This document shows positions 115 to 22,490 of a stretch of 26,066 nucleotides of DNA, in pieces. The stretch's first letter is position 1. Each line of letters starts with the position of its first letter. The DNA is taken from contig CAZBFB010000057.1 of NCBI GenBank assembly GCA_964491085.1, forward strand, positions 1 through 26,066, written 5' to 3'. The stretch comes from an uncultured Gammaproteobacteria bacterium. Lineage in GTDB: Bacteria > Patescibacteriota > Patescibacteriia > CAZBFB01. A program made the position numbers and the translations under genes. Under the pieces are notes generated by a model that saw only the letters and a program-made list of their open reading frames with translations, was not told the DNA's origin and made no database searches.

Positions 115-348
115 ATGATTAAAAAATTTTCTTCCCCCAAATTAAAATATGGTTCGCGCCGACCCGCTTCGCCGGAGCTTTAGCGAGGCGAGTGTTTTTC
201 TCCGGGTTCTTTTGCGGTTTTGAGCGGTGCGGCTCCCCGGCCTCGCCGAGACGGCGAGTCGAGGCGGGCGCCGCCTTTCCGAATTTTCGCGGGGGGAATT
301 CCTCGCCGCCGCCGGCGGCGAAATGCGTTCGGACTAATTCAAGAATTC

Positions 349-420
349 TGCTCCCGAGAGGAATCGAACCTCTATTACAAGATCCGGAATCTTGCGTCCT
401 ATCCGTTGAACGACGAGAGC
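349..420 (-). tRNA. tRNA-Arg (anticodon CCG), CCA not encoded
   Basis: The reverse complement folds as a 72-nt cloverleaf: acceptor GCTCTCG/CGGGAGC, D stem GTTC/GGAC, anticodon stem CAAGA/TCTTG with loop TTCCGGA, T arm AGAGG-TTCGATT-CCTCT, discriminator A. Confidence 0.9.
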
Positions 421-1415: not shown

Positions 1416-1429
1416 AAAAACTTAAAAAT

Positions 1430-1990: not shown

Positions 1991-2053
1991 AGCTATACAA
2001 AAAAACAATAAATCGCTAGTATCAGCATAGCACCCAAACCTAAAAATTCCAAT

Positions 2054-4105: not shown

Positions 4106-4206
4106 ACAACAAATATCCATAAATATCAAGCAGTATCTATAAATATCTGATACTAGTAGATACTTGCTCGCTCCGCTCACGATATTGGCAGATACTAATT
4201 TAACGT

Positions 4207-4893
4207 ATGTTCGGTTTTTTATATATCAACAAACCCTCCGGCCCCACTTCGCATGACATCGTGGATAGCGCGCGTCGCTTGACTGGCGAGCGACGGGTTG
4301 GTCATGCTGGTACGCTCGATCCGTTCGCGTCCGGATTGTTGATTGTTGGCGTTGGCCGCGAGGCGACTAAACATTTGGGAGAATTGATCGGGCTGGATAA
4401 AGAATACATTGCGACCATTAAACTCGGGGCCACTTCGGATACGTATGACCGCACGGGAAAGATTACCGGTACCGGTCATCAGGAACCAGTCACTAGGGAA
4501 AGAATACAAAATGTTCTGCAAAAATTCACGGGTACGATTCAGCAAATTCCACCCATGTACTCGGCGAAAAAAATCAACGGCAAAAAATTATACGAACTCG
4601 CGCGCGCCGGCAAAGAGATCACGCGCCAGCCAAACGCCGTCACAATCCATAATCTCGAACTGCTCGAATATGATATTAAAAACCACCTGCTAAAAATAAT
4701 CGGCACGGTCAGCTCCGGCACCTACATTCGCTCCCTCGCCCATGATATCGGCCAAGCGCTGGGGTGCGGCGCATACGTCGCAGAACTCGAACGTACTGCC
4801 ATTGGCCCGTTCAAACTAACCGAAGCGCAAACTCTCAACGAGCCGCTACAGTATCAAAAATGGGAAACAATAAAAACAAAATTACTAAATTAG
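4207..4893 (+). CDS. truB: tRNA pseudouridine(55) synthase
   Basis: Catalytic Asp motif GHAGTLDP, plus QIPPMYSAKK and GTYIRSLAHDIG. Confidence 0.9.
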   Translation: MFGFLYINKPSGPTSHDIVDSARRLTGERRVGHAGTLDPFASGLLIVGVGREATKHLGELIGLDKEYIATIKLGATSDTYDRTGKITGTGHQEPVTRERIQNVLQKFTGTIQQIPPMYSAKKINGKKLYELARAGKEITRQPNAVTIHNLELLEYDIKNHLLKIIGTVSSGTYIRSLAHDIGQALGCGAYVAELERTAIGPFKLTEAQTLNEPLQYQKWETIKTKLLN

Positions 4894-4929
4894 TCCCGAG
4901 GACTACATATAGTCCCGAGGACTACATAT
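4892..4929. repeat. perfect tandem duplication of a 19-mer overlapping the truB stop codon
   Basis: AGTCCCGAGGACTACATAT occurs at 4892-4910 and again at 4911-4929. Confidence 0.9.
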
Positions 4930-4975
4930 GCTAATTTCCGTCTGGGGCGGAAAATTACTAATATGAATCTCCGGT

Positions 4976-5153
4976 TGTCATTCCCGTGAAAACGGGAATC
5001 CAGACCCCCCAGCTTAATAATTTCTAATACCCAATTCCCAATTTCCAACAAAATGTCCAATGCTTAATGCCAAATTTCATTGGAAATTGGATATTGGTAA
5101 TTGGAAATTTGAATAGGGGTTAATCTGGATCCCCGATCAGGTCGGGGATGACA
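4976..5153. repeat. MITE-like composite palindrome bounded by inverted R1 (TGTCAT-hairpin) modules
   Basis: Left end is TGTCATTCCCGTGAAAACGGGAATCCAGA (4976-5005). Right end is TCTGGATCCCCGATCAGGTCGGGGATGACA (5124-5153) in inverted orientation. An internal AT-rich inverted repeat pairs CCAATTCCCAATTTCCAA (5031-5048) with TTGGAAATTGG..TTGGAAATTT (5081-5110). No ORF. Confidence 0.7.
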
Positions 5154-5178
5154 TGGTGCATTAATTTATTAGCAATTT

Positions 5179-5211
5179 CCCGCCATAGGCGGATCATCCT
5201 CTGACTGAAAG
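5179..5211 (+). repeat. R5 repeat copy (CCGCC-N3-GGCGGATC-N-CTGAA)
   Basis: CCCGCCATAGGCGGATCATCCTCTGACTGAAAG. Related copies are at 6829-6861 and 17308-17338, all in the same orientation. Confidence 0.7.
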
Positions 5212-5278
5212 AATTAATAAACTAGCAAATTTAAAAACAGGAGTGAAGCGAGCCGACCGCTCACCTCACTCCTCGTTA

Positions 5279-6688
5279 CTACACCTGCTCCGGACTGGGG
5301 CCGCCGCCGTAACAAAAATCACATACCGAACCGACTTTCGCCACTTCCGCTATCACCCGACGATAACGGAACTGATCCAGAAACAGCACCGAATCAGCCC
5401 CCAGCTCTTGAGCGAGCCAATTAGCGTCTTGCTCAATACCCGGCAAGCGCGCCGCCAAGAGTTGATCCGTCCGCGGCATGGTCACGCCATAAGGACAGAC
5501 GCGCTTGATGGGCGATGACGCTACTCGCAGATGGACTTCGCGAGCGCCGCCAAGACGCAACAGTTTAATCACACGCCGCGCCGTGCTACCGACCAGCAAA
5601 GAATCGTCCACCACCACCAGACGTTGTCCCTTGACCATGGCGGGCACAATTCCCAGCTCGATCTTGGTACCAAACACCTGAACTTTGGTGCCATCATCCG
5701 GTTCAGGCACGTGCCGGCCACCGAAAGGATTTTTTTGAATCACCGGATGAAACGGCAATCCTCGCGCCGCGGCATAGCCATGACCAGCCACAATCCCGCT
5801 CATCGGTACAGCTGCCACAAAATCCACGGGCGTTTGATCTCGAGCGGCCAACTCCTGACCTAGGGCATAGCGCAATCTATAGACCGATCCAAAGTCACCA
5901 TCGGTCGCGGTATGCAACGGAATGAAAGCGGCCCGATGCAAACACGGAGTGGGCACGACTTCACTGTGCGCGAAACGCACCCGCTCTATTTCCATCTGCT
6001 GACCGCGCGCGCGAAATACCGTCATGAACCCCGACCGAATTACTTGGGCCCGGTGCGCCTCAACCAGCGGGAAACTCGTGCGCTCGCTCGATAACACCAC
6101 GCCACCGGCTACCGGCAACTCGGCTTGATAAAGCGCGTGCACCCCGTGAGGATCGCGCGCGGCGATTATCACTTGCTCGCGCGGCGCCAAGATCAACAGC
6201 GCATAAGCTCCGCGAACGCGATTCAGAGCCGTGGCCAAACGATCAGCCAACGAACCGCGCGCTCGCGCTAGGAAATGCGCTAACAATTCCGGATCACTCA
6301 CTTCACTATCGCCAGAAAACAGCGCGGTATCACGCAATTCTGCCAACAACGATGCCCGATTGGTGAACGCGCCATGAAAAGCGATGGCCAGCGGACCCAG
6401 CGCGCCGTGATTTGGTATCGCGAACAGACAAGTATCCCACGCCGGACGATCGGCACTGGCCTTGCTCACTTGGCCGATAGTCATAGTCCCGCGCAAGCGC
6501 TTCAACTTGGCTTCATTAAATATCTCCGTGACCAAACCATAACCGCCATGGACACCAAGCTCACCCGCACCGGACATGATGGCCACATGCGCGCTCTGGC
6601 TGCCGAGATGCTGTAAGCCGTGCAGGCACGGCACCACAAACTGTGCCGCGTCATCTTGCCCGCTCAACACACCAACAATTCCGCTCAT
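5279..6688 (-). CDS. amidophosphoribosyltransferase (PurF)-like protein with degenerate glutaminase active site
   Basis: Class-II GATase plus PRTase layout. PRPP motif RLVVVDDSLLVGST and C-terminal CDFCYGG resemble the Fe-S type PurF. The start is assigned to the second ATG (6686-6688), 8 nt after TAAGGAGGGA, giving MSGIVGV where canonical PurF has MCGIVG. Confidence 0.75.
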   Translation of the reverse strand: MSGIVGVLSGQDDAAQFVVPCLHGLQHLGSQSAHVAIMSGAGELGVHGGYGLVTEIFNEAKLKRLRGTMTIGQVSKASADRPAWDTCLFAIPNHGALGPLAIAFHGAFTNRASLLAELRDTALFSGDSEVSDPELLAHFLARARGSLADRLATALNRVRGAYALLILAPREQVIIAARDPHGVHALYQAELPVAGGVVLSSERTSFPLVEAHRAQVIRSGFMTVFRARGQQMEIERVRFAHSEVVPTPCLHRAAFIPLHTATDGDFGSVYRLRYALGQELAARDQTPVDFVAAVPMSGIVAGHGYAAARGLPFHPVIQKNPFGGRHVPEPDDGTKVQVFGTKIELGIVPAMVKGQRLVVVDDSLLVGSTARRVIKLLRLGGAREVHLRVASSPIKRVCPYGVTMPRTDQLLAARLPGIEQDANWLAQELGADSVLFLDQFRYRRVIAEVAKVGSVCDFCYGGGPSPEQV

Positions 6689-6761
6689 GAGCATTCCCTC
6701 CTTAGAAATTTGTCACCCCCCACCGCCAGACCTTACCAAATGATGACAATCAGTTCAACTG

Positions 6762-6789
6762 TTGCAAAAATTTGAAGCTATGGTATAGT
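6762..6789 (+). promoter_or_regulatory. sigma70-type promoter for rpsT (TTGCAA-N16-TGgTATAGT)
   Basis: -35 TTGCAA at 6762-6767, extended -10 TGGTATAGT at 6781-6789. The leader of about 77 nt runs to the rpsT ATG. Confidence 0.55.
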
Positions 6790-6805
6790 GCTTTTACTTA
6801 ACCTA

Positions 6806-6861
6806 AAAAGCTACTGAAGCTATAAGCTTCCGCCCAAGGCGGATCAGCCTCTGGCTGAAGG
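6806..6861 (+). repeat. rpsT leader carrying an R4 copy (AAAAGCTACTGAAGCTA) and an R5 copy
   Basis: R4 is at 6806-6822, identical to 8398-8414. R5 is TCCGCCCAAGGCGGATCAGCCTCTGGCTGAAGG at 6829-6861, enclosed by the AGCTTCC/GGAAGCT stem. Confidence 0.7.
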
Positions 6862-6872
6862 AAGCTACCCTT

Positions 6873-7127
6873 ATGCCCAATACCCAATCAGCCGCCAAGC
6901 GCTTGCGCCAAACCAGCAAAGCCACTGCCAAAAACGTCCAAGCCAAGCGCACAATAAAATATCTGGTCAAAGAAACGCGCGGCGCCGTGGCGACATCAAA
7001 AGACGAAGCGTTGAAATTATACCGCTCCGCCCAAAAAGCCATTGATAAAGCCGCGCAACGCGGAGTTATCACCAAAAACACCGCTGCTCGCCGCAAATCA
7101 CGATTAATGAAAGCGATCATAAAATAA
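6873..7127 (+). CDS. rpsT: 30S ribosomal protein S20
   Basis: 84-aa basic protein with the typical N-terminus MPNTQSAAKRLRQ and an SD-like GAAGGAAG upstream. Confidence 0.9.
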   Translation: MPNTQSAAKRLRQTSKATAKNVQAKRTIKYLVKETRGAVATSKDEALKLYRSAQKAIDKAAQRGVITKNTAARRKSRLMKAIIK

Positions 7128-7136
7128 TTTTGATTT

Positions 7137-7179
7137 TTCCTCCCTCTTTATGCAGAAGGGGGAGGTCAGGTGGGGGATT
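7137..7179 (-). repeat. R3 repeat copy (intergenic, inverted relative to the pepP-internal copy)
   Basis: The reverse complement AATCCCCCACCTGACCTCCCCCTTCTGCATAAAGAGGGAGGAA matches 7496-7536 except for the loop and 1-2 other bases. Confidence 0.8.
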
Positions 7180-7208
7180 AAAACAGCTTTAAAAAGCTGT
7201 TTTAATTT
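7180..7208 (+). terminator. rpsT intrinsic terminator hairpin
   Basis: AAAACAGCTT-TAAA-AAGCTGTTTT forms a 10-bp stem with a 4-nt loop, with T residues at the 3' side. Confidence 0.6.
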
Positions 7209-7216
7209 CCAAAAAT

Positions 7217-7225
7217 TGGTATACT
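7217..7225 (+). promoter_or_regulatory. extended -10 box (TGgTATACT) 6 nt upstream of the pepP ATG; predicted leaderless mRNA
   Basis: TGGTATACT-GTCTCC-ATG, with no SD possible. Confidence 0.5.
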
Positions 7226-7231
7226 GTCTCC

Positions 7232-8344
7232 ATGTCCAACATTCATCTCAAACAATTCCGCCGCGACTTGCACACGCACAACATTGATGCGGCGTATATC
7301 GTTTGGCCGGAGCATATGCAGTATCTGACCGGATTTTATGATAGCGATTCGCGTTTGATCGTGTCCCAAAAATCACTGGCCGTGTTATCTGATCCGCGCG
7401 TGTTGGATTTGGTTCGCAATCACAAAACTAAATTCACCTGTTTTGATATCAGCTCGCCCGCGTTCAAAAATTCTTGGGTAACATGGTTAAATTCCATCCC
7501 CCACCTAACCTCCCCCTTGAGTACAAGAGGGAGGAAAAATAAAACTATTGGTTTTGAAGCCAACCATTTGACCGTTGCGCAACACGCTCGGCTAAAAAAA
7601 ATATTCCCACATGGCACATTCGCGCCGATTGATTCTATTCTGGAAACCAGCCGCGCAATTAAACAACCGGACGAAATCGATTTGATCAAACAAGCGTGCC
7701 AGATTACTCACCGCGCTTATCAAATCATCAAGCCGCGGATAAAATCCGGTATGACTGAACTCGCCGTCGCTTGGCAGTTGGAAAAAATCATGCGCGAGCT
7801 GGGCGCGACCGGCTTGGCTTTTCCGACAATCGTCGCCACCGGCCCCAACAGCGCCATTCCCCACGCGCAACCAACTACGCGAACCATAAAAAAGAATGAC
7901 ATCGTGCTGTTGGATTTCGGCGCAAAAATTGGCCTGTATCACGCGGATATGACACGCACATTTTTTGTCGGTAGCCCTTCGACAAGCTCAGGGAATAAAC
8001 TTAGAAATATTTACGACATCGCCGCTCGCGCCCAACAACTCGGAATCAAAGCCGCTCGCGCCGGAGCATTTATTCACAAAGTAGACAACGCCGTCCGTGA
8101 TTATATCCGCGCCGCCGGTTTTGCCGACAACTTCACCCACGCCACCGGCCACGGCGTTGGCTTGGAAATCCATGAAGCGCCGGCGGTGTCAAAAAAACAC
8201 CCTTCGACAAGCTTAGGGTATAAACTAACATCCAATATGATTATTACCGTCGAGCCGGGAATTTACCTCCCCGGCATCGGCGGCGTGCGCATTGAAGATA
8301 CCATTAGAATTACAAAAAACAAACCGGAAATACTGACAAAATAG
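7232..8344 (+). CDS. M24B family Xaa-Pro aminopeptidase/dipeptidase
   Basis: Metal-ligand motifs DFGAKIGLYHADMTRT, HATGHGVGLEIHE, VEPGIY and RIED, with an N-terminal creatinase-like domain. Confidence 0.9.
   Translation: MSNIHLKQFRRDLHTHNIDAAYIVWPEHMQYLTGFYDSDSRLIVSQKSLAVLSDPRVLDLVRNHKTKFTCFDISSPAFKNSWVTWLNSIPHLTSPLSTRGRKNKTIGFEANHLTVAQHARLKKIFPHGTFAPIDSILETSRAIKQPDEIDLIKQACQITHRAYQIIKPRIKSGMTELAVAWQLEKIMRELGATGLAFPTIVATGPNSAIPHAQPTTRTIKKNDIVLLDFGAKIGLYHADMTRTFFVGSPSTSSGNKLRNIYDIAARAQQLGIKAARAGAFIHKVDNAVRDYIRAAGFADNFTHATGHGVGLEIHEAPAVSKKHPSTSLGYKLTSNMIITVEPGIYLPGIGGVRIEDTIRITKNKPEILTK
7496..7536 (+). repeat. R3 palindromic repeat copy in frame inside pepP
   Basis: ATCCCCCACCTAACCTCCCCCTTGAGTACAAGAGGGAGGAA contains the hairpin CCTCCCCCTT/AAGAGGGAGG and is translated as IPHLTSPLSTRGRK. 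Confidence 0.8.
7975..8001 (+). repeat. R2 repeat copy (CCCTTCGACAAGCTCAGGGAATAAACT) in frame inside pepP
   Basis: Translated as PSTSSGNKL. Near-identical copies are at 8200-8226, 15825-15848 and 24984-25006 (inverted), and a shorter copy lacking the flanking bases at 15650-15666 (inverted). Confidence 0.8.
8200..8226 (+). repeat. R2 repeat copy in frame inside pepP (second)
   Basis: CCCTTCGACAAGCTTAGGGTATAAACT is translated as PSTSLGYKL, in the same element frame as the copy at 7975. Confidence 0.8.
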
Positions 8345-8414
8345 CTTCAGTAGCTTTTGGGGAGTCGCTTGAATTTCCTACTGCACCTACCGAAGCTAAA
8401 AGCTACTGAAGCTA
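8342..8414. terminator. 17-bp perfect inverted repeat (R4 arms) between convergent pepP and holA; bidirectional terminator candidate
   Basis: TAGCTTCAGTAGCTTTT (8342-8358) pairs with AAAAGCTACTGAAGCTA (8398-8414). The terminal TAG and CTA triplets are the stop codons of pepP and holA. Confidence 0.6.
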
Positions 8415-9434
8415 CTTCTGTACCGATTCGTACAAAAATTTCGTCAACAAGGCCGACGGCGGTAATGACGTCGTTTTTAATTTTAGCTCCAACTGCAAAA
8501 CCAGCTCAAGCAAGCGCTCCAAATCCTCGCGCCGATACCGCTCGGCTTGCGCTTTCATCTTGCGCGCCACAAACGGATGCAATCCCGGCACCTCGCCGGA
8601 AAAAATATGCATATCAACCAGTAAACGCACCTGCCGCGCGATCATGGATAATAAATGTAACGGCTCATGATCTTGTAACAGGTGCTCTTCCAACTCCTTA
8701 AGCGCCGCGACCCATCGCCCCGTCCCCACCGCATCAACCAACGCAAAAATATCTTCTTCAATCCGCGCCACCGACAACAACGCCACTACCTCTTTTGTGA
8801 CCGCGCCGGTGGCACCCACATAACTGGCACACTTATCCGCCTCATTTTTTAGTTGCCACAAATCAATCCCCACTCGCTCCACCAAATATTCCCCCAAGCG
8901 CGGCTCGCTAAGTACATTACGCTTCGCCCAAACCTGACGCACAAATTGCGCTGGATCAACCAGCGTCATCACATCACGACATTTGGTTATTTCTTTAGAA
9001 CCTTGCACCCAAAATGCCTTAACTGCGGCTACTCCCGTCTTAGCTTGCGCGTGCGCTGTTTTAAACCACCCCATTCTTTCATCCGGACTACCTTCATACC
9101 AAATTACCAGCGTGGTATCAGCCCCGACTGTTTCCAGCAAGCGCGCCAGTGCCTCGGCCACAGCTTTATCTAATTTTTCCGTCAACCGCAGAATCACTAA
9201 TCGTTTGCTGGAAAACAATGACTGACTCGCCACGGCCGCGTGTAGTTTCCCCGCCCCATCTTCGCCTTTCAAATCATCGCTCGCCACCGCCACAAAATTT
9301 TCCAAACCATATTTTTTAGCAAACGCCTCCCGCCACGCCGTCACGGTCTCGGCAATAACAACGCTAGCATTGCCATACCAAAAAAAAATATGCGGCACCG
9401 ATTTTAATTTTGCTTCAATAAATTCAGTCAGCAT
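8412..9434 (-). CDS. holA: DNA polymerase III delta subunit
   Basis: HolA-like length and pattern (IFFWYGN, SKRLVILR, EEDIFALVDAVGTG, HEPLHLLSMIARQVRLL). The start is placed at ATG 9432-9434. The longer track ORF begins at a TTG that is the -35 TTGACT. Confidence 0.7.
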   Translation of the reverse strand: MLTEFIEAKLKSVPHIFFWYGNASVVIAETVTAWREAFAKKYGLENFVAVASDDLKGEDGAGKLHAAVASQSLFSSKRLVILRLTEKLDKAVAEALARLLETVGADTTLVIWYEGSPDERMGWFKTAHAQAKTGVAAVKAFWVQGSKEITKCRDVMTLVDPAQFVRQVWAKRNVLSEPRLGEYLVERVGIDLWQLKNEADKCASYVGATGAVTKEVVALLSVARIEEDIFALVDAVGTGRWVAALKELEEHLLQDHEPLHLLSMIARQVRLLVDMHIFSGEVPGLHPFVARKMKAQAERYRREDLERLLELVLQLELKLKTTSLPPSALLTKFLYESVQK

Positions 9435-9441
9435 ATAATTA

Positions 9442-9470
9442 AATGTAGCAAACGCAAAAACGGTAGTCAA
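9442..9470 (-). promoter_or_regulatory. holA promoter TTGACT-N17-(TGc)TACATT, 7 nt upstream of the ATG; predicted leaderless
   Basis: The minus strand reads TTGACTACCGTTTTTGCGTTTGCTACATTTAATTATATG. Confidence 0.5.
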
Positions 9471-9505
9471 TTGGTCTAATCCTGCATACCCTCCCCCCTT
9501 CTAAC

Positions 9506-9544
9506 AAAAAAATAATCCCCACGCAACGCGCTCGTTGCATGGGG
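9506..9544 (-). terminator. intrinsic terminator of the 204-aa orphan gene
   Basis: On the minus strand, CCCCATGCAACG-AGCG-CGTTGCGTGGGG (11 of 12 pairs) is followed by ATTATTTTTTT. Confidence 0.7.
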
Positions 9545-9558
9545 GAAAGGACAAAGGA

Positions 9559-10173
9559 CTACTTGCGCCGACAGAACACCCAACGCACGTCGCCAGCGTA
9601 GACAGAGTCGGGATTGGCTTCGTTGCTGTCGAGGTACCAGCTGTCGTCGTCGTCCTCGACGAGGAAGACGCTAGGGTCGCCGCTCGCGTCAGCAATCGGC
9701 TCCATGCCGATCAGGTACCCCTCGCCTTTCGGCTGGTCATTGTCAGCGAGCCGACAAGCGAGACCGACTTCGGCCGGGCACTTGTCAAATCCGAATCGTT
9801 CGGCACCGGCGAACACTTCGGTAATCGTCGCACTATCTTTGCCGGTGAGCACCTTGGTGGTCAGTGCCACCAGGTCGAGGGTGATCTTGGTCTGGCTGAT
9901 CGGGGTCTTGGCGAGCATCTGCCGCGCATAGACCCTGACCTGCAAACTGGCCAACTCCAGCGTGGCGGTGTAGGCCTCGACGGTTTTGTGGAAGCCGAGG
10001 GTGATGGTATGCGGGAAAAACGCGGTCATTTCGGCCCACGGATTCTCCTTGCGGAGAAACCGTTTGAGTGCGGAGAGCCAGATCATGCCCTCCGAGCCGG
10101 CCAACTTCTCAAACAAATCCTTGAGCGGTCCGCCAATCTGGCGGAGCGCCTCACCGAGCATGGCGTTATCCAT
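9559..10173 (-). CDS. hypothetical cytoplasmic protein with acidic C-terminal region (orphan, GC-rich cassette)
   Basis: 204-aa ORF with SD AAAGGAAAA 6 nt upstream of the ATG, high G/C at third codon positions, and its own promoter and terminator. No motif recognised. The antisense 222-aa ORF looks like a shadow. Confidence 0.65.
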   Translation of the reverse strand: MDNAMLGEALRQIGGPLKDLFEKLAGSEGMIWLSALKRFLRKENPWAEMTAFFPHTITLGFHKTVEAYTATLELASLQVRVYARQMLAKTPISQTKITLDLVALTTKVLTGKDSATITEVFAGAERFGFDKCPAEVGLACRLADNDQPKGEGYLIGMEPIADASGDPSVFLVEDDDDSWYLDSNEANPDSVYAGDVRWVFCRRK

Positions 10174-10290
10174 GGTCAGTTTTCCTTTTGCATTACTGCA
10201 TGAACGCTAGCGGGCTACCGCAATGGTAGTCATAGCCAGAAAATCCCAATGATTTAGGAGTTTTTGGTTGTGACTAGCGATTAATAAATG

Positions 10291-10319
10291 AGTGTAGTAT
10301 GTGCGTTATCTTTTGTCAA
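10291..10319 (-). promoter_or_regulatory. sigma70-type promoter TTGACA-N17-TACACT for the 204-aa orphan gene
   Basis: The minus strand reads TTGACAAAAGATAACGCACATACTACACT. The leader is about 115 nt. Confidence 0.55.
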
Positions 10320-10381
10320 ACGAAACCGCCGCGGGACGGGCGCATCACTATTTGTCTGCGTTAGTCAGCGTCAAGTCCGCG

Positions 10382-13108
10382 TTAGTCCGCGCCCACGGGG
10401 ATCATCTCTCCCCAATTTTCCCCGACCTTCACATCCGCCACCAACGGCACTTTTAATTTTGTAACATTTTCCATAGTTTCCTTCACCACTCGCGCCACTT
10501 TTTCCACTTCATCCGCCGGCACCTCCAACACCAATTCATCATGCACTTGCAACAACAATTTCGCTCGTGCGCTCACTTGCGGTAACGTCTCATGCAATTT
10601 AATCATCGCCAATTTAATAATATCGCCGGTAGCCGTACCTTGCACCGGCATGTTGGTAGCCATCCGCTCGGCCGCGGCGCGGAGCATCGGATGATCGGCG
10701 TCAATGTCCGGCAGATAGCGGCGGCGACCAAACAGCGTTTCTACATAACCATGCTCACGCGCGAATTGTTTGGTGCTCTCGATATATGCTTTAATGCCGC
10801 TATGAATTTTAAAATAGGTTTCAATAAATTCGCGCGCTTCTTTCCCGTTCATATTCGTTACCCGAGCCAAATGAGTCGCGCCCATGCCGTACAAAATTCC
10901 AAAGTTAATTGCTTTAGCCGCGTAACGCATCTCTTTCGTGACTTGCTCAATCGGCACGCCGTTAATTTCCGCCGCCGTGCGCGCGTGAATATCTTCCCCC
11001 TGCTGAAACGCGGCCATCATTTTTTTGTCGCCGGACAAATGCGCCGCCACTCGCAATTCAATTTGCGAATAGTCCGCCGATACGAGACGATTACCTTTAT
11101 CCGCCACAAACGCGGCGCGAATTTCTCGCCCCAATTCTGACCGGATGGGAATATTTTGCAAATTTGGATCCGAACTGGACAAGCGACCGGTTTCGGCAAT
11201 GGTTTGATTAAAACTGGTGTGAATCCGACCGTCAGCTTCCACCAATTCCGGCAGGGCTTCCAAATAGGTGGACAGCATTTTTGACAATTCGCGATGTTCC
11301 ATGATTTTCGGAACAATCGGATGTGCCTCCACCATTTTTTCCAGCTCGGCGGCGGCGGTCGAAATACCAGTTTTTGTCTTAGCCAATCCTTTAGTCGAGA
11401 TCTGTAATTTTTCAAACAAAATAACTTTCAACTGCTTCGGCGAAGCAATGTTGAACTCTTCCCCAGCTAATTCCCAAATCGTTTTTTGCAATGCCTGCAA
11501 ACGCACCCGCACTTTTTTGGCAATCGCGACCAGAACTTTTGTATCGAGCGCGATGCCGGCGTGTTCCATCTCGGCCAAAATCGGCACCAGTGGTATTTCA
11601 ATATCAGCCAGCACTTTATCCACGCCGTTTTCTTTTAATCGCGGCGCCAGCAGATGGTACAACCGCATGGTGTAATCCGCATCCGCGCAAGCGTATTGCG
11701 CCAAGTCAGCCAGCGGCACTTTAGTGATGTTAATTTTTTCTGATTTGGTCTCGCCGGTGAGCTGTTCGATCGTCGTCATTTCAAATCCAAATTCGCGAAA
11801 CACCAACGACTTAAGATCATAATTCCGCGCGCCCGGATGCAACAAATATTCGGCGAGCATGGTATCAAACGTAATCCCCTGCAGGGGAACGCCGTGATTG
11901 CGCATAATTTCCAAATCATACTTGGCATGATGACAAACTTTTTCGATCTTAGGATTTTCCAAAATCATTTTTAATTCATTCGGAATTAGTAATTCGGAAT
12001 TCGTCATTGCTACAAAGTACGCCTCACCTTCTCTCCACGAAAAACTCATACCAACCAGCTTGGCGCGACGCGGGTTCAACTCGGTTGTTTCGGTATCAAA
12101 TGCAAACCGTCCCTGTTTACCCAACTCACGCACAAAATCAGCGAGCTGGACATCGGTTTCAATCAAGTGATAGCCCGCATTCTTTTTTGGCGCTTGTGGC
12201 GTGCCGGTTTCGGTTTCATTCGTCGGAATTTTCCCGATCAATGAAGAAAAACCCCACTCTTGAAACAGCGCGGCCACCGCTTCGCGATCAAATGGCTGAC
12301 GCAAAGCACTCGCGCGCGAAAAATTGATCGGCACATCACGCCGAATTGTTCCCAGCTCGCGGCTCATGAACGCCGCCGCGCGGCTCGTGCGCAATAATTC
12401 TTTTTGCCGCCCGGACAATCCCGCGTCATCACGATCCACCGCCTCATATAACGCGTCAAGCGTGTCGAATTTTTGCAACAACTCAACTGCGCCTTTTTCG
12501 CCGATCCCTTTTACTCCCGGCAAATTATCCGACGGATCGCCCTTCAACGCTTTCAAATCAATCAACTGTGAAATTTTCAATCCATAACGCTCCTCGACTG
12601 CCGCCGCATCATAAATCACAGTGTCGGAAATTCCTTTTTTGAGTGTGTATACTTTTGTGTATTCGTCAATCAATTGTAAAGCATCCAAATCGCCGGTTAT
12701 AATCACCAGATTGCTTGCTTGATTTTTTGTTTTCTTGTTTTCTTGAACAATCGTGCCGATAATGTCATCCGCTTCAAACCCCTCGGCTTCATAAATCGGA
12801 ATATTCATGGCCTGCACCAATCGCTTAATCAAGGGCAACTGATCATACAACTCTTGTGGCTGTTTAACGCGGGTGGCTTTGTATTCTTTGTAAGCCAGAT
12901 GTCGAAATGTCGGCCCGCGCAAATCAAACGTGGCCACGATCGCGTCCGGATCGAGCTCTTTCAAAATTTTCAACAAAATCGTGGCAAAACCATACACCGC
13001 ATTCACCAGCAAACCGTCTTTGGTTTGCAAAGGCGGCAAGGCATGAAAGGCGCGATGCAGAAGGGCGTTGCCATCGATAATAACGAGAGTAGGGAGTTTT
13101 TTTGGCAT
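10382..13108 (-). CDS. polA: DNA polymerase I (5'-nuclease, 3'-5' exonuclease and polymerase domains)
   Basis: LPGVKGIGEKGA (H3TH), FDTETT and HHAKYD (exonuclease motifs), DYSQIELR (motif A), RYAAKAINFGILYG (motif B), QVHDELV (motif C). Confidence 0.95.
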   Translation of the reverse strand: MPKKLPTLVIIDGNALLHRAFHALPPLQTKDGLLVNAVYGFATILLKILKELDPDAIVATFDLRGPTFRHLAYKEYKATRVKQPQELYDQLPLIKRLVQAMNIPIYEAEGFEADDIIGTIVQENKKTKNQASNLVIITGDLDALQLIDEYTKVYTLKKGISDTVIYDAAAVEERYGLKISQLIDLKALKGDPSDNLPGVKGIGEKGAVELLQKFDTLDALYEAVDRDDAGLSGRQKELLRTSRAAAFMSRELGTIRRDVPINFSRASALRQPFDREAVAALFQEWGFSSLIGKIPTNETETGTPQAPKKNAGYHLIETDVQLADFVRELGKQGRFAFDTETTELNPRRAKLVGMSFSWREGEAYFVAMTNSELLIPNELKMILENPKIEKVCHHAKYDLEIMRNHGVPLQGITFDTMLAEYLLHPGARNYDLKSLVFREFGFEMTTIEQLTGETKSEKINITKVPLADLAQYACADADYTMRLYHLLAPRLKENGVDKVLADIEIPLVPILAEMEHAGIALDTKVLVAIAKKVRVRLQALQKTIWELAGEEFNIASPKQLKVILFEKLQISTKGLAKTKTGISTAAAELEKMVEAHPIVPKIMEHRELSKMLSTYLEALPELVEADGRIHTSFNQTIAETGRLSSSDPNLQNIPIRSELGREIRAAFVADKGNRLVSADYSQIELRVAAHLSGDKKMMAAFQQGEDIHARTAAEINGVPIEQVTKEMRYAAKAINFGILYGMGATHLARVTNMNGKEAREFIETYFKIHSGIKAYIESTKQFAREHGYVETLFGRRRYLPDIDADHPMLRAAAERMATNMPVQGTATGDIIKLAMIKLHETLPQVSARAKLLLQVHDELVLEVPADEVEKVARVVKETMENVTKLKVPLVADVKVGENWGEMIPVGAD

Positions 13109-13171: not shown

Positions 13172-13214
13172 GGAATCCAGTTAACTTAGATCCCAAATCT
13201 AGTTTGGGATGACA
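13172..13214 (-). repeat. R1 (TGTCAT-hairpin) repeat copy
   Basis: GGAATCCAGTTAACTTAGATCCCAAATCTAGTTTGGGATGACA. The stem CCCAAA/TTTGGG replaces CCCCGA/TCGGGG of the copy at 5124-5153. Confidence 0.75.
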
Positions 13215-13268
13215 AAATAAAAAAACGCCCGAGAGTCAGACCACCACGATGGTGATGTGACTCCCGAG
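13214..13268 (-). terminator. strong intrinsic terminator of the GC-rich 333-aa gene
   Basis: On the minus strand, CTCGGGAGTCA..(inner CACCA/TGGTG)..TGACTCTCGGG forms an 11-bp stem including G-U pairs, followed by CGTTTTTTTATTTT. Confidence 0.75.
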
Positions 13269-13319
13269 CGAGACCTAGGCGCTCACACGGGAGCGGCTAG
13301 GGTACTGCGTTGCCGACGA

Positions 13320-14321
13320 CTACGCCGAGGCGGAGGCGGTCGCGCCGAGCTGGTTCGGCGGGACGAACGTCATGTCGATGACGCCGGGACGCGCCGACAA
13401 GAGACCCGTCGTGAAGACGGCCGGCTCGTTGGCGTGCGTGCTCTGCGTGATCGGCATGGCGTGCTCGGGCGTGAGCTCGGCATCCTTGACGAGCGTGCCC
13501 TGGGCGACGATGGCGTTGGCGTTGATCGCCTGCGGCAAATTCGCCGCGTTGATGTCGGCCATCTTCACCTTGGCCCACTTGCCGTTGACATCCGTGAACG
13601 TCATCTGGCCATTGCGGCCGTCGGACAGGTAGGCGATCGGCGCGTTGGTCGGGCTCGCGACCTGGTTCCAGGCCATGCCCGCGCCGAACAGCGCCGCGCC
13701 CTTGGTCAGATCCGCCATGTACACGGTCCCGTCCTCGTCGATCGCGACCGCCAACCGGTCGTTGTTCTCGACCAACTGAACGATCTTGAGCGCGCTGTCC
13801 TCGAGAGCGAAGATGCCGTACGTGCGACCGTCGTCGAACGACGCCGAGGTCACCGCTTCCGCGATGAACCCGACGAAGTAGATCCCGACGTAGCCGGTGA
13901 GCGGCTTCGCGAACTCGACGAGGGTACGAACGATGCTCGAGATGACGCCCTGACTGGTGATCCGGTGATCGTGGCGCAGGACCTGCACGTACGCGTTGCT
14001 CTGGAAGCTCCCGATGAGGAGCGCCTGCGCGGGCAGGACGACCGTCTCGTTGAGCTTCTGGCCGATGGAGCGCACGATGCCCGTCAGGTACGCGAACGTG
14101 ACGCGCGACCGGTCGGGACGCTCGTTGTTCGGCTCGACGCCCAAGGCGACGAGCTGACGCACGGTGGTCTTCACGCCGAAGTCCCGGGCGCCCTGGTCCG
14201 TCCCGTCCCCGCCCTTGATCAGCTTCCACGAGGCCGTGGCCATGGCGTAGAAGCCGGTGAGCACGGCGTACAACCGAACGAGCGGAATCTTCAGCGTGTT
14301 GATACGCGGATTCGTCTTCAT
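13320..14321 (-). CDS. hypothetical secreted protein (orphan), extreme GC3 codon usage
   Basis: 333-aa ORF with balanced amino-acid composition and a hydrophobic N-terminus (LVRLYAVLTGFYAMATA). By hand count about nine in ten codons end in G or C. The two overlapping ORFs (400 aa on +, 310 aa on -) are Arg/Asp/Gly-rich shadows. Confidence 0.7.
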   Translation of the reverse strand: MKTNPRINTLKIPLVRLYAVLTGFYAMATASWKLIKGGDGTDQGARDFGVKTTVRQLVALGVEPNNERPDRSRVTFAYLTGIVRSIGQKLNETVVLPAQALLIGSFQSNAYVQVLRHDHRITSQGVISSIVRTLVEFAKPLTGYVGIYFVGFIAEAVTSASFDDGRTYGIFALEDSALKIVQLVENNDRLAVAIDEDGTVYMADLTKGAALFGAGMAWNQVASPTNAPIAYLSDGRNGQMTFTDVNGKWAKVKMADINAANLPQAINANAIVAQGTLVKDAELTPEHAMPITQSTHANEPAVFTTGLLSARPGVIDMTFVPPNQLGATASASA

Positions 14322-14624
14322 GATGATGCTATTCCCTTTGACCCTTTGAGGTCGCTGTTTACTGCATCACTTCCAGGTCTCGTGCTGGAAGCCCCACGTC
14401 ACTGCAAATTACATTGCGACGGTATCGCCCTCCAAACGATACACATCGGCTATTATTAAAGAACTTCTAAACCCCTCCCACAGCTGGGTACCATACGTCT
14501 GTTGACATACGATACGAATATCGTCCGGTACCCACCTGTTGAAGGACTTTTTCCAAAAAAGAAAAGAGGCGCAATGCCTTTGGTCTCTCGACCTCACAGC
14601 CCTGATATTTTTTAACTTGGCAAC

Positions 14625-14653
14625 ACTGTATCGCACTCCCCAAATCTTGTCAA
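14625..14653 (-). promoter_or_regulatory. sigma70-type promoter TTGACA-N17-TACAGT for the GC-rich 333-aa gene
   Basis: The minus strand reads TTGACAAGATTTGGGGAGTGCGATACAGT. It predicts a leader of about 297 nt. Confidence 0.55.
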
Positions 14654-14700: not shown

Positions 14701-14774
14701 GGCCACGTAGCCAAGTGGTTAGGCGTTGGTCTGCAAAACCAATTACGCCGGTTCAATTCCGACCGTGGCCTCCA
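14701..14774 (+). tRNA. tRNA-Cys (anticodon GCA), CCA encoded
   Basis: Acceptor GGCCACG/CGTGGCC, anticodon stem TTGGT/ACCAA with loop CTGCAAA, T arm GCCGG-TTCAATT-CCGAC (one C-A mismatch). It has the U73 discriminator and A13-A22 mismatch typical of tRNA-Cys, plus a 3' CCA. Confidence 0.9.
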
Positions 14775-17261: not shown

Positions 17262-19153
17262 TATGTGGCTGGCGATGACAATAATTCAGCTGCTGGCGGT
17301 TCACTCTCTGCCAAAGGCGGATCTGCCTTTGGCTGAAGTTTCTCTACTCCCACCAAACAAACGGCCTGCCACGGACGATAATAACTTTTGAATTCACGCT
17401 TGGTCTCACGGCCATCCGGATAAGTAACCACATAGTTAAACACCGCCCGCGCGCCCGGATGCGCCCGCTCGGTGCACTTTTGTTCACCCGGCTTTAAATC
17501 AAGTGTCTCAATATATTTTGTCGGCGGCGGATCGGTCTGATTGGTTACCACCGGAGTGGTTGTTTGAGCCACGCGCTCGTCTTTGGTGCCCCAAAATTCA
17601 ATAGTCAAAAAATCTCCTTCCACCCGTGCTTTCAATAAAATATGTTGCCCGGTGTCATTGCGAAAAGAAAAATCTGGCACGGGATCATAAATAGTCGCGT
17701 CCATACCAACTGGTGGTTCGTAATACGGCACGCGATAAGAATGATTTTGACGTGACATAATCGGCAAGCCGGCGTTGAGGGTGGCGCGGAATAATGTGGT
17801 GCCGATCTGACATAATCCCCCACCAACTTCCGGTATGGTTTGATTGCCTTTGATTACCAACTCCGCGCGATAACCGGCCTCTACTGTGAAGGGACGCAGC
17901 GCGGCCAGGGCCGAAAATATTTCATCCGGCGCCACGAGCAAACCGTTTAACTTATCAGCCCCCACCGCGATATTGTGCCGCCGATTGGTTGGGCTACCAG
18001 CAAAACTGGTTTTAGCGATGCCTATTAGTTCTTTGATGCCATATTCGGCGGCCACGGCAGAATAGGGCGGCTCGGTTATGGTCACAATCAGCGGCACGGT
18101 TGTTTTCGGCTGGGGATTGGTGCCGTTGGTAAGGCGCGTGATAGCCGCCATCACTTGCTGTTGCGAAGCGGGCAGATCAACCGCGCGACCAACCACTGGC
18201 AATTCAAACCGCACCGCTCGATTGCCTTCCAGTTCAAACTTGGCCGCCTGCGGATGGCGATTGACCGCTTTGACAATACCACTCCACCACGCGGACAGGG
18301 CTGACTGATCAACCACCAAACTAACATCCTCACCATTTTTTTCTGGATACAAGGCAGACACTGCCAACGCTGTGGGCAAACGCCACACTTGCGTATCGTC
18401 GGTTACACTAATCTCTTGACGCAATAACCGTTCAACTTGAGGTTTGGCTTGTACTAAAAGTAACGGGTCGCGCCGAGTATTTTTATCTCGTAACACCAAA
18501 GTAATTGGCTGATTAATACCGTGGGCTAAATTATTGGCCAAGGTGTCGATCGCTTGATCATAAGAAAACTCACGACCACTTGAGCCGTGCAGAACCACAA
18601 TCGCTTTATCCCGCAATTCATAACGCGGCTCTACCACCAAGGTTTCTTTATCCTCAAATTCCTGATGCAAAATTGCCGTCACTTCAGCCCGCCGCACACT
18701 TACGGGAATGGCCACATCAAATCGGCCAAGGTCGGCGTTGGTGTAGTCAGCCAAGCGTACCCACCACGGGCCGCGATGACCAACCAGCGCCGCGGCTTTA
18801 GCCGCGCCAACTATATCAAAACTTACCAATTCAATCGCCACATCAGTCCCAGACAAACCCACCAGAGTAGCTTTAACCGTGTAACTCTCACCATTAGCGG
18901 TAAACACAAAACCAGCGACGCGCCACTGCTCAACGCGTTGGCTCAATAACTCCTCGACTTCTTCTGGGGTTTTCCCCCCCACGGGCAGACCGGCCACATA
19001 AACACCAGATAAAATACGCTGGCTAGCTAGATCCACCCCAACCATTGCCAACAAACCGATAAAAACAAAAATGGCGACGATGGTCGTCGGCCGCTGTAAC
19101 CACTGTATAATTTTACGCCCTAGCGTATTAGACAGCATCATATTCCAGACCAC
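17261..19153 (-). CDS. VanW/YoaR-like family protein with N-terminal TM anchor
   Basis: VanW domain IPEVGGGLCQIGTTLFRATLNAGLPI..YRVPYYEPPVGMDATIY. The track start is a GTG; ATG alternatives are at 19141 and 19138. Confidence 0.85.
   Translation of the reverse strand: MVWNMMLSNTLGRKIIQWLQRPTTIVAIFVFIGLLAMVGVDLASQRILSGVYVAGLPVGGKTPEEVEELLSQRVEQWRVAGFVFTANGESYTVKATLVGLSGTDVAIELVSFDIVGAAKAAALVGHRGPWWVRLADYTNADLGRFDVAIPVSVRRAEVTAILHQEFEDKETLVVEPRYELRDKAIVVLHGSSGREFSYDQAIDTLANNLAHGINQPITLVLRDKNTRRDPLLLVQAKPQVERLLRQEISVTDDTQVWRLPTALAVSALYPEKNGEDVSLVVDQSALSAWWSGIVKAVNRHPQAAKFELEGNRAVRFELPVVGRAVDLPASQQQVMAAITRLTNGTNPQPKTTVPLIVTITEPPYSAVAAEYGIKELIGIAKTSFAGSPTNRRHNIAVGADKLNGLLVAPDEIFSALAALRPFTVEAGYRAELVIKGNQTIPEVGGGLCQIGTTLFRATLNAGLPIMSRQNHSYRVPYYEPPVGMDATIYDPVPDFSFRNDTGQHILLKARVEGDFLTIEFWGTKDERVAQTTTPVVTNQTDPPPTKYIETLDLKPGEQKCTERAHPGARAVFNYVVTYPDGRETKREFKSYYRPWQAVCLVGVEKLQPKADPPLAESEPPAAELLSSPAT
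17308..17338 (+). repeat. R5 repeat copy embedded in the 3' coding end of the VanW-like gene
   Basis: CTGCCAAAGGCGGATCTGCCTTTGGCTGAAG contains GCCAAAGGC/GCCTTTGGC as a 9-bp palindrome. On the minus strand it is translated as LQPKADPPLAE. Confidence 0.7.
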
Positions 19154-20561: not shown

Positions 20562-22490
20562 CTACTTTAATGACTTAATACTCACAATACGCCAACCAGA
20601 ATGAAGCGCAGACCCTTCAGGAATATTAACATAAATTCCTTCCTCGTCTCTAATTATTCCAACTCCACTATGTACTGACTGTTGCATTTCTATTTGCTTT
20701 GCTGTTAAAAAACCAGGACTGGCAATTTCAAAAACATACTTATGAGGACTTGGTTCTTCATTGTCCACTTTTACAACATTTCTATCGCGGTGATCCACTA
20801 TCTTATCACTATAAAAAATTCTTTCCATTACTGGTTGCACTACTGCATCCGCTTTTTTTGATTTAACTTCAAATAATTTTAGTCGCAACGATGAACCATT
20901 TTCGGTGACATAATAAATTGATTGAGAGAAAAGATCATCTAGAAACATAGAGATATTTCCCTGTCCCTCTAAATACTCTTGTTTAAAAAATGGAACTTCA
21001 TAATCTTTTGACGTACTGAATCTATATTTAAAAACACTCGCATCATCCAGATGCTTCATCAGCTTTGCAACTATATTATATTGTGAAAAGCATTCCAATA
21101 ATTCTTGCTGCCTACTCACCACATAAGCATCCACCTGCCCTCTTGAGACAACTATGTTACTATTTATCTTTTGAGCAAGCTCAAAAAGTGCTTCCTTAAG
21201 AATTTCTATTTTTTGCTCCTCCGAAAATTGTTGGCGTTCAAAACTTTTTTCTTCCTCCGCAATTTGAGCGAGCTCTTGCGTAAGTTGTCTAAACGAATTT
21301 GTTTCCTCTGCAAAAAAAGTTTTATATTCACCTTCTCCTTGGTTAAATCGCTCTTTAATAGCACCCTCTTTTTGTGTAATCCGTACTCGTTCGTCCTCTT
21401 CTGCATGTTGTCGCTCTTTTTCCCTCTTAACTCGTTCGGCAATTCTTTCAGTCTCTTCTTTTATTCTCAACTCAAAATAATCTTTGAGAGAAATCTGTTG
21501 CCCCCTATCCTCAATTTGGTATTTTTTATTTTCAGGGTGAGCAATACTATCCGTCAAAATTTCGACATATTTCTTTTTTAATTCTTTGTAGTTTTGAATA
21601 ATTTGACTCAATCCTTCCTGCGTCAAATCTTTCGAGAGTATGCTAAGAGCAATAGCCGTATGCTCGACATACTTGCTCAAATATTTTTCTCTACTTTCTT
21701 GATGTTGTAAGTATTGAAAAACAGCCAAAAATAAATGATGACTATCATTCCTTAAAAGCTCACCAAATAATTTTTTATCTTCCTCTGAAATTTCATCCCT
21801 AAATTGTAAATCCCGATTCTTACCAGAGAAATTTCCAATCCTATCAGTATTCACTTTCTCATCTTCAATTCCAATTTCCTTTCCTATCAAATCATCAATT
21901 TCTGTCTCCACCAATCCAGGATTAATATCCAGCTCATCTCGTCCTTCCTCTGCTAGTAATCCCCGCAATTCGTCTTTTGTTTCATCATTAAGATTATTGG
22001 TAATAAGAAAATATAAAAGACGGCTTGTTCTGCCATTTGCATCCGAATATGCATGAATAGCGTTAAAAGAAGACGAAACAAGTAATGCAATATCTTTCAA
22101 ATCTCTTCCACTGCGATTCATTTCCTTTACCGAAGCTAGAACCTTATCAAACAACCCTGGTTTATCTTCTGGTCTTGGTGACACATAATCAATCCCTTGC
22201 AATACCCCTTCAAGTACCATGGTTTTTTCGTGCATACCCCATTTATCTTTCTTTTTGTCACATAAAATGCCATTTACTCCATCCAATAACTCAATAAATT
22301 CATCAGGTTGCAACCCCTCGATAAAAGCACGCTTTGTATCTTCGCTGGAAAATATATCCTCCATTTTTTTCCCATGAAATGATGTTATATTTTCTGCTGA
22401 TTGTAAAAAACGCAAAAGTACCGTCGATCTTTTTTCTCGATCAATGGATTTTTCGTCTCTTGTATTTCCAAAATTAATACGTTCCCTCAT
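20562..22490 (-). CDS. Fic/DOC (Fido) domain protein with long coiled-coil and C-terminal extension; AT-rich
   Basis: Fic motif HAYSDANGRTSR (nt 22020-22055) fits HxFx(D/E)(G/A)N(G/K)RxxR with F replaced by Y. A central Glu/Lys/Arg-rich segment is present. About one-third G+C by eye. Confidence 0.7.
   Translation of the reverse strand: MRERINFGNTRDEKSIDREKRSTVLLRFLQSAENITSFHGKKMEDIFSSEDTKRAFIEGLQPDEFIELLDGVNGILCDKKKDKWGMHEKTMVLEGVLQGIDYVSPRPEDKPGLFDKVLASVKEMNRSGRDLKDIALLVSSSFNAIHAYSDANGRTSRLLYFLITNNLNDETKDELRGLLAEEGRDELDINPGLVETEIDDLIGKEIGIEDEKVNTDRIGNFSGKNRDLQFRDEISEEDKKLFGELLRNDSHHLFLAVFQYLQHQESREKYLSKYVEHTAIALSILSKDLTQEGLSQIIQNYKELKKKYVEILTDSIAHPENKKYQIEDRGQQISLKDYFELRIKEETERIAERVKREKERQHAEEDERVRITQKEGAIKERFNQGEGEYKTFFAEETNSFRQLTQELAQIAEEEKSFERQQFSEEQKIEILKEALFELAQKINSNIVVSRGQVDAYVVSRQQELLECFSQYNIVAKLMKHLDDASVFKYRFSTSKDYEVPFFKQEYLEGQGNISMFLDDLFSQSIYYVTENGSSLRLKLFEVKSKKADAVVQPVMERIFYSDKIVDHRDRNVVKVDNEEPSPHKYVFEIASPGFLTAKQIEMQQSVHSGVGIIRDEEGIYVNIPEGSALHSGWRIVSIKSLK

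Follow-up and report, generated by a model that had tools for sequence, protein, structure and literature searches.

Most bacterial ORFans are AT-rich. Patescibacteria have tiny genomes, in which accessory genes are prime candidates for interaction with the host, and a survey found that most of the transfers detected into this group come from other Patescibacteria (PMC12455944). Among the described genetic units closest to the one reported here are the morons of phages, independent promoter–gene–terminator units of deviating guanine + cytosine (GC) content that are inserted between conserved genes (PMC3594210). Here we describe ORF333, an open reading frame (ORF) of 333 codons in the patescibacterial contig CAZBFB010000057.1 (26,066 bp, the complete contig on the NCBI record, with a GC content of 50.2%; this whole stretch of DNA is referred to below as the window). 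ORF333 is a real gene, read in the 333-amino-acid (aa) frame and compositionally foreign to the genome in which it resides, and it is fixed in three or more populations that are closely related. We consider it probable, if not firmly so, that ORF333 is a moron-like single-gene cassette that was acquired horizontally from an unsampled high-GC lineage and lies in a variable interval beside polA.

Like a moron, ORF333 consists of one gene equipped with a promoter-like site and a strong terminator of its own, differs from its flanks in GC content, is inserted among conserved genes, and is functionally unconnected with them. It differs in being chromosomal, between polA and tRNA-Cys rather than in a prophage; there are no phage genes and no PHROG matches in the 26 kb, and the flanks consist of polA, tRNA-Cys, and the genes for a bPH_2 protein, RuvB, and HolA. 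Morons are also usually recognized against relatives that lack them. ORF333 likewise resembles the horizontally acquired ORFans and islets found at tRNA genes in its atypical composition, its adjacency to a tRNA gene, and its absence of detectable homologs, and the content of its interval differs in a syntenic relative, the contig L025 discussed below. It departs from them in being very GC-rich, in having neither an integrase nor a duplicated tRNA end, and in involving a single gene only. As a phenomenon ORF333 is ordinary, that is, a horizontally acquired ORFan; what is unusual is its extreme GC content, its occurrence in a reduced genome, and its having almost no relatives.

Composition, Reading Frame, and Assembly of ORF333

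The locus comprises the following features, where GC1, GC2, and GC3 denote GC at the first, second, and third codon positions and P0003 is the only relative of the protein.

13180–13214, strand not assigned: resident hairpin resembling a repetitive extragenic palindrome (REP), TGTCATCCCnnAC...GATnnGGGATC..TTAAC, abutting the terminator
13214–13270, minus strand: intrinsic terminator, lower stem CGCUCGGGAGUCA/UGACUCUCGGGCG, then a U7-A-U4 tail
13274–13301, minus strand: hairpin 1 of the 3′ untranslated region (UTR), CCUAG.CGCUC-loop-GAGCG.CUAGG, conserved in the only relative
13320–14321, minus strand: ORF333 coding sequence, 333 aa, identified by GC3 periodicity and protein-level homology to P0003 in the same frame
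13257–14459, plus strand: spurious antisense shadow ORF, 400 aa, the gene call of the NCBI-derived and one Logan gene set
13297–14229, minus strand: shadow ORF, 310 aa
14322–14624, minus strand: leader of about 300 nt with host-like composition (GC 0.38–0.54)
14625–14653, minus strand: sigma-70-like predicted promoter, TTGACA-N17-TACAGT, 10 of 12 matches
14701–14774, plus strand: tRNA-Cys(GCA), divergent neighbor on the 5′ side

The initial annotation of this DNA, made from the sequence alone, had described the GC3 of ORF333 as extreme beside that of polA, and the counts confirm it: GC3 is 93.7% in ORF333 and about 54% in polA next door (0.54 in both polA, 10382–13108, and ruvB). The overall GC content of the gene is 65.8%, with GC1/2/3 of 0.59/0.44/0.94; third positions are almost devoid of A (1 of 333 codons), and T occupies 6% of them. 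This bias is even along the gene (0.92–0.95 in each third), and the GC-rich stretch, which extends from about 13225 to about 14300, has sharp edges. The correlation of relative synonymous codon usage between ORF333 and the host polA is 0.26. In both composition and codon usage, ORF333 therefore deviates strongly from the resident genes. The gene starts with an ATG right after an in-frame stop and encodes a protein of normal amino-acid composition.

Long shadow ORFs had been reported in two other frames and are indeed present (400 aa on the plus strand and 310 aa on the minus strand). The 400-aa ORF has GC1/2/3 of 0.89/0.45/0.57 and an Arg/Asp/Gly-rich product, and its cluster holds only two copies, both from this locus (the NCBI contig and the Logan contig L019). 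The biased translation, the GC1 of 0.89 with a GC3 of 0.57, and the confinement of the cluster to this locus rule it out as a real gene, as far as sequence data can. Because the periodicity in the 333-aa frame is that of a high-GC gene, and because it is in this frame that the relative is conserved, we conclude that this frame is real and that the deposited 400-aa call is spurious; the possibility, raised at the outset, that one of the other frames is the true gene is thus answered in favor of the 333-aa frame. Since the antisense ORF was called instead, the true protein is missing from the NCBI-derived set and is on record only from one Logan contig. ORF333 is hence an intact, fixed accessory gene that was missed by standard annotation, and foreign genes in patescibacterial genomes require gene prediction that takes composition into account.

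A 2,187-bp Logan contig from run ERR4904393 codes for a protein identical to the 333-aa product, and the locus is also found on a 6,433-bp Logan contig from run ERR3478687. In both, the junctions to polA and tRNA-Cys are identical to those in the window, and the two contigs are 99.8% and 99.9% identical to it. Single-nucleotide polymorphisms (SNPs) relative to the window fall at 12724, 13019, 14473, and 14594 in one of them, the last two within the leader, and at 13279, 14939, 14982, 16368, and 17275 in the other. Three distinct, closely related populations carry the ORF333 structure. A chimeric assembly, which had been named as a possible refutation, is excluded as far as assemblies show, given three assemblies with identical junctions. 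The 1002 bp of ORF333 contain no SNP across the three populations, compared with nine in the flanks; this is a weak signal (P ~0.07), and with three assemblies the numbers are too low for a selection test.

A Single Distant Relative

Protein searches covered about 15 billion sequences overall. A k-mer/HMMER search of 5.8 billion protein clusters returned only ORF333 itself, and an exhaustive phmmer search of 1.84 billion representatives returned P0003 (99 aa, E 1.7e-5) and two repeat proteins. We regard both of the latter as spurious: P0002 is immunoglobulin-like and shares the 7-mer FTDVNGK, which it repeats ten times, and P0004 is of the leucine-rich-repeat type. A search started from P0003 found P0003 alone. 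ORF333 had no tblastn match in phage and plasmid collections, and scans of metagenome and viral contig collections produced no further member by peptide pattern and tblastn and no further copy of the conserved 3′ block by exact pattern. In agreement with the earlier statement that the protein matches no recognizable family, no significant match was obtained in sequence searches of Pfam, PHROGs, NCBIfam, PADLOC, and PDB. ORF333 is thus close to a true orphan, whose sole relative is a 99-aa fragment.

P0003 aligns to residues 221–321 of ORF333 with 37% identity. Its gene has a GC3 of 0.96 and lies in a different genomic context on L002, a 1,168-bp JGI contig, where it begins exactly at a breakpoint (CATG junction, L002 598–610) with a 5′-truncated DUF711 gene on the opposite strand. 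P0003 would then be a truncated remnant or lie at a rearrangement. Both genes are cut at L002 598–610, either through a genuine deletion or inversion or because this short contig is a chimera.

The identities between ORF333 and P0003 at the three codon positions are 0.56/0.63/0.60. The same codon is kept at 30 of the 37 conserved residues, compared with 24.4 ± 2.5 expected at saturation, and in mismatched codons the third positions are random (~47% identity). The divergence of the two sequences is deep, with conservation at the protein level. The acquisition of ORF333 had been called recent; this is not supported, as the only relative is equally GC3-rich and is found in a different context.

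The Predicted Transcription Unit

The strong intrinsic terminator that the initial annotation placed near 13214–13268 is present in the form of a 13 + 7 bp hairpin (13226–13270) followed by T7-A-T4 (13214–13225), and the 118-nt 3′ region folds with −49.2 kcal/mol (z = −5.4 against shuffles). L002 shares with ORF333 not only the C-terminal domain but also the two-hairpin 3′ UTR. Hairpin 1 is kept there (CCUAG.CGnnC...GnnCG.CUAGG) with two compensatory pairs, and the lower stem of the terminator is conserved in sequence (21/23 and 15/17 positions), whereas the upper stem has been replaced. The homology between the two stops exactly at the end of the T run, and we therefore regard the ORF and its 3′ end as one unit that occurs in two genomic contexts. 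The adjoining REP-like hairpin at 13180–13214 marks the 3′ edge of the foreign segment. A second copy of this hairpin, with compensatory stem changes, is found at 5119–5153 (two matches vs 0.00 expected), and both copies sit a short distance downstream of strong terminators.

On the other side of the gene, the TTGACA-N17-TACAGT site and the similar TTGACA-N17-TACACT site ahead of the second GC-rich ORF (10319..10291) are both present as had been reported. Only three sites in the first 20 kb have a perfect TTGACA with at least 10 of 12 matches, and these are two of the three. The −35 element of the ORF333 site overlaps, as a near-palindrome, the −35 element (TTGTCA, 14647–14652, plus strand) of the divergent tRNA-Cys promoter. 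The earlier proposal that a resident promoter drives ORF333 is plausible, but the site lies 300 nt upstream of the start codon; it may serve as the promoter of ORF333. The region from 14310 to 14625 (316 nt) folds with −104.9 kcal/mol (z = −3.7), and a Shine-Dalgarno-like AAAGGGAA lies in the leader at 14332–14339. The leader contains no Rfam family and no convincing small ORF, and the 3′ UTR has no Rfam match either. The arrangement, a predicted promoter and a terminator of its own around one gene of deviant GC content, is that of a moron-like unit, with the promoter match being at the level of the consensus.

The Host Lineage and the Possible Donor

The nearest GTDB representatives by polA are Patescibacteria such as Falkowbacteria, with 49–50% identity, and there is one match of 46% in Saccharibacteria. 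Because even the nearest polA is only 49–50% identical, the host is a poorly sampled patescibacterium.

A useful reference is L025 (ENA ERZ27249449), a 21.3-kb patescibacterial contig found via the family of the second GC-rich ORF, ORF204. Its GC content is 61%, and GC3 is 0.69–0.84 in all of its genes. The initial annotation had suggested comparing syntenic polA/tRNA-Cys loci, and L025 permits this in part: it has a neighborhood like that of the window (tRNA-Cys...polA...holA, 1–12305), and its tRNA-Cys–polA interval holds four other ORFs, including a gene of the diversity-generating retroelement (DGR) family and a template-like 109-aa ORF, and no ORF333; its polA is 46.6% identical.

The codon dialect of ORF333 (CTC > CTG with some TTG, GTC > GTG, ACG > ACC, GGC >> GGG, and CCG >> CCC) differs from the preference of the host for TTG, GTG, AAA, and GAA. 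The housekeeping genes of L025 correlate with the codon usage of ORF333 at r = 0.91, and the likelihood of the choice among GC-ending codons is best under the L025 reference, with a log likelihood (logL) of −0.751 per codon, compared with −0.777 for the Streptomyces phage phiC31 and −0.786 for mycobacteriophage L5. Planctomycetota polA genes give about −0.77 and a deltaproteobacterial polA gives −0.94. The margins are small and the references few, so that an actinobacterial phylum is not thereby excluded, yet codon usage that had been called actinobacterial in style is not diagnostic when L025 fits best. We suggest that a high-GC patescibacterial donor, or its mobile element, is at least as likely as an actinobacterial one.

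Horizontal acquisition from a high-GC donor, as proposed at the outset, is in keeping with the foreign composition of ORF333; its attribution to actinobacteria, possibly the host, is not supported, as no homolog from a sequenced organism was found among about 15 billion proteins. Close homologs in another lineage, which would identify a donor, were not found; the 99-aa fragment P0003 is the only homolog, and for an actinobacterial gene in particular there are no homologs and no specific dialect. The type of donor we infer rather than demonstrate.

The Protein Product

AlphaFold models of ORF333 have a predicted local distance difference test score (pLDDT) of 37 for the full-length protein and 49.6 for residues 163–333 aligned with P0003. 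In both low-confidence models the N-terminal half is helical and the C-terminal half is rich in beta structure, and the product would accordingly have such an architecture, with an NHL-like blade character in its C-terminal half. An NHL-like blade motif, LAVAIDEDGTVYMAD, at residues 189–203 stands out from shuffles (z = 6.6), and no other segment is significant. The two-sequence C-terminal profile matches the designed NHL propeller 6ren with an E of 1.5e-4, summed over the identical blades of the target, and the NHL sensor of PknD with an E of 0.057. In Foldseek searches of PDB and BFVD, the best neighbors were all beta-propellers (RCC1, BamB, and WD40), none of them with an E as good as 0.001.

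With the NHL propellers PknD (1rwi) and "Pizza" (6ren), ORF333 thus shares one blade-like LAVAIDEDGTVYMAD with about 40 residues to the next beta-hairpin, and a low-confidence model that is a beta-meander with propellers as best structural neighbors. It differs in having one significant motif, in being unmatched by the NHL family of Pfam (not listed at E up to 1), in having too few repeats to close a propeller, and in its sub-significant scores. The five to six tandem blades of ~40–44 residues matching the profile that define an NHL propeller were not found, and the PDB match is carried by the repeats of the target. We therefore treat an NHL-like beta-meander, which would probably be a binding module, as a lead and not as a result.

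The initial annotation had further described a hydrophobic N-terminus and a secreted protein. The hydrophobicity is only marginal: the best 10-residue Kyte-Doolittle mean of ORF333 is 1.87, compared with 1.90 for the cytoplasmic polA product and 2.4–3.7 for the membrane and secreted proteins of the contig, and the best 19-residue value is 1.38. An A-T-A|S site is present, but by hydropathy no segment looks convincingly like a signal peptide or a membrane span, and the product is probably not Sec-secreted. Our best guess for the product is an accessory role in binding or recognition and not in catalysis. Should binding be its function, it would represent an interaction factor specific to this lineage.

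ORF204 and Its DGR Family

A second GC-rich cassette lies on the other side of polA.

9517–9544: terminator of ORF204, a 12-bp hairpin
9559–10173, minus strand: ORF204, 204 aa, GC3 0.79
10291–10319, minus strand: promoter-like TTGACA-N17-TACACT of ORF204

ORF204 has at least 40 patescibacterial relatives. Those on L020 and L023 adjoin RVT_1 genes, and the intergenic region contains repeats of their 3′ ends in which mismatches fall almost only at template adenines (20/25, 16/20, and 20/21). On account of these RVT_1 neighbors and template repeats with adenine-specific mismatches, the ORF204 family is one of DGR variable proteins. The 26-kb window contains neither a reverse transcriptase (RT) nor a template repeat, and its ORF204 copy is therefore a remote or orphaned DGR target.

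The family is GC-elevated over its whole length in five patescibacterial hosts, with a gene GC of 0.51–0.64 compared with 0.37–0.46 for the host and a GC3 of 0.53 to 0.82. The members concerned are as follows.

L020 8001–8615 and 10725–11360
L022 8001–8654
L023 8001–8624
L024 6001–6726
L026 789–1436

In L020, the RT gene is AT-rich (GC 0.30) and is flanked by two paralogous targets, both of them preceded by a near-identical TTGACA...TATAAT promoter. By contrast with the five hosts, the family gene is compositionally native in the high-GC contig L025. Such a GC pattern would be expected if the genes were transferred from high-GC members of the radiation. Variable in content, the regions flanking polA look like a landing zone for GC-rich cassettes, which probably come from high-GC members of the same radiation.

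ORF333 shares with these DGR cassettes a GC-richness relative to the host, a preference for CTC over CTG, a consensus promoter and a hairpin terminator, and a single insertion between housekeeping genes beside polA. It differs from them in having no template or variable repeat, no RT, and no sequence relation, and in having one relative rather than at least 40. The comparison of ORF333 with the ORF204 family by hhalign gave an E of 0.13, which is not significant and involves only a stretch with the pattern WKxIKxGxG....AxDF. Residues 31–48 of ORF333, SWKLIKGGDGTDQGARDF, resemble the near-invariant WKTIKLGTGLKTADDF of the ORF204 family, by chance or as a shared short module.

Origin of the Cassette

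We propose that the self-contained unit of promoter-like site, leader, 333-codon ORF, structured 3′ UTR, and intrinsic terminator arose when ORF333 and its 3′ end were transferred from a lineage with a GC3 of about 0.9 or more. The segment would have inserted into a patescibacterial genome with ~50% GC, in the variable interval that separates tRNA-Cys from polA. Several points weigh against this proposal. There is no donor homolog, so that the transfer is drawn from composition alone, and of the marks of mobility (integrase, transposase, recombinase, or flanking direct repeat) none is present, the adjacent tRNA-Cys being the only such feature. The nearest GTDB genomes, with polA at most 50% identical, are too distant to show an empty site. 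Both members of the ORF333 family lie in moderate-GC surroundings, and GC-richness could consequently be kept by the cassette and not be a trait of a donor genome. Some 300 nt separate the best promoter match from the start of ORF333, the Shine-Dalgarno spacing is long (12 nt), and the fold evidence is sub-significant (pLDDT 37 and 50, Foldseek E ≥0.0024, template modeling score ~0.3).

The transferred DNA might instead be nonfunctional here, with ORF333 open only through the scarcity of stop codons in GC3-rich sequence. Long open frames in three frames of the segment, the distant promoter, the weak Shine-Dalgarno element, and relatives too few for a test of purifying selection are all compatible with this, but the ATG right after an in-frame stop, the dedicated terminator, the normal amino-acid composition, and the conservation of the protein in this frame by the distant P0003 make it unlikely; the lack of differences in 1002 bp across three populations, when the flanks have nine, points weakly the same way. 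We think it distinctly unlikely that ORF333, its relative, and ORF204 belong to a pool of GC-rich, self-contained single-gene cassettes that are exchanged between Patescibacteria without adjusting in composition to the GC content of the host, with the two-hairpin 3′ end as a sequence-specific handle for capture, mobilization, or recombination, like attC or the 3′ element of a DGR, and the polA flanks as a preferred landing site. The 3′ UTR blocks CCCTAGCCG, GCCTAGGTyTCGCyCGGGAGTCA, and TGACTyyCGGGCGTTTT are kept even though synonymous sites are near saturation, both known members lie in lower-GC surroundings, and the ORF204 family has the same promoter–ORF–terminator layout and is GC-elevated in five hosts of GC 0.37–0.46. 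This idea of a handle is, however, based on two sequences only, and scans for the 3′ block in metagenome and viral collections gave no further copy. Neither attC core sites nor a recombinase are present, the conserved terminator may be just a terminator, and because the ORF204 family is native in a high-GC contig, ordinary transfer from high-GC relatives explains it. If the 3′ end of ORF333 did serve as a mobilization handle, the mechanism of cassette exchange would be one undescribed so far in this group.

The initial interpretation of the locus, recent uptake from a high-GC actinobacterial host of a secreted host-interaction factor placed under a resident promoter, is in our view very unlikely. 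A GC3 of 0.94 with C- and G-ending codons is compatible with it, as are the correlations with actinophage references (r ~0.8), the resemblance of one motif to the NHL blades of the mycobacterial PknD sensor, and the position of the promoter-like site in DNA of host composition. On the other hand, no homolog exists in any sequenced actinobacterium or elsewhere, the codon dialect is closer to that of a high-GC patescibacterial contig, and the organism is by polA nearest to Falkowbacteria and other Patescibacteria and not closer to Saccharibacteria (46%); in addition, the N-terminal hydrophobicity is at the level of polA, no segment reaches a transmembrane level, and the canonical U-tailed terminator is conserved in the relative. 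That ORF333 is a remote DGR target like its neighbor ORF204 is highly improbable. The family membership of ORF204, the GC-rich 3′ end of ORF333 followed by a hairpin, and its Asn-rich C-terminal part would suit such a role, but the variable and template repeats and RT that were detected for L020 and L023 are missing from the 26 kb, profile comparison finds no relation to the ORF204 family, and ORF333 is not polymorphic across three populations. Moreover, the random third positions in codons mismatched with P0003 are unlike AAC-type diversification. We give hardly any credence to an assembly chimera or contaminant, or to the 400-aa plus-strand ORF as the true gene: the composition change is abrupt and the 400-aa ORF stands on the NCBI record, yet three assemblies from different runs share both junctions, and the codon-position composition, Arg/Asp/Gly-rich product, and two same-locus copies of that ORF speak against it.

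Two further types of element were considered and rejected. The hairpins carry CCTAG/CTAGG and CGGGAGTCA/TGACTC and not the attC cores RYYYAAC/GTTRRRY of an integron cassette, and there is no integrase and no array. A group II intron or insertion sequence target was dismissed. Repeat searches gave no mobile-element ends.

Other Features of the Window

A low-GC island at 20562–22490 on the minus strand (GC 0.35, GC3 0.27) carries the gene for a Fic-domain protein of 642 aa, which PADLOC matches weakly to SoFic; it is a second compositionally foreign gene, with a deviation opposite to that of ORF333. At 5019–5109 there is a hairpin with 36-nt arms, whose Rfam match to mir-576 is spurious. A 34-nt sequence, CCGCCnAAGGCGGATCnnCCTyTGRCTGAAg, occurs in three copies that are 71–85% identical (5180–5213, 6830–6863, and 17308–17341), one of them intergenic and the other two within ORFs or at their ends. 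Finally, a 44-nt inverted repeat (7135–7178/7496–7539, 75% complementary) surrounds the start of an M24 peptidase gene.

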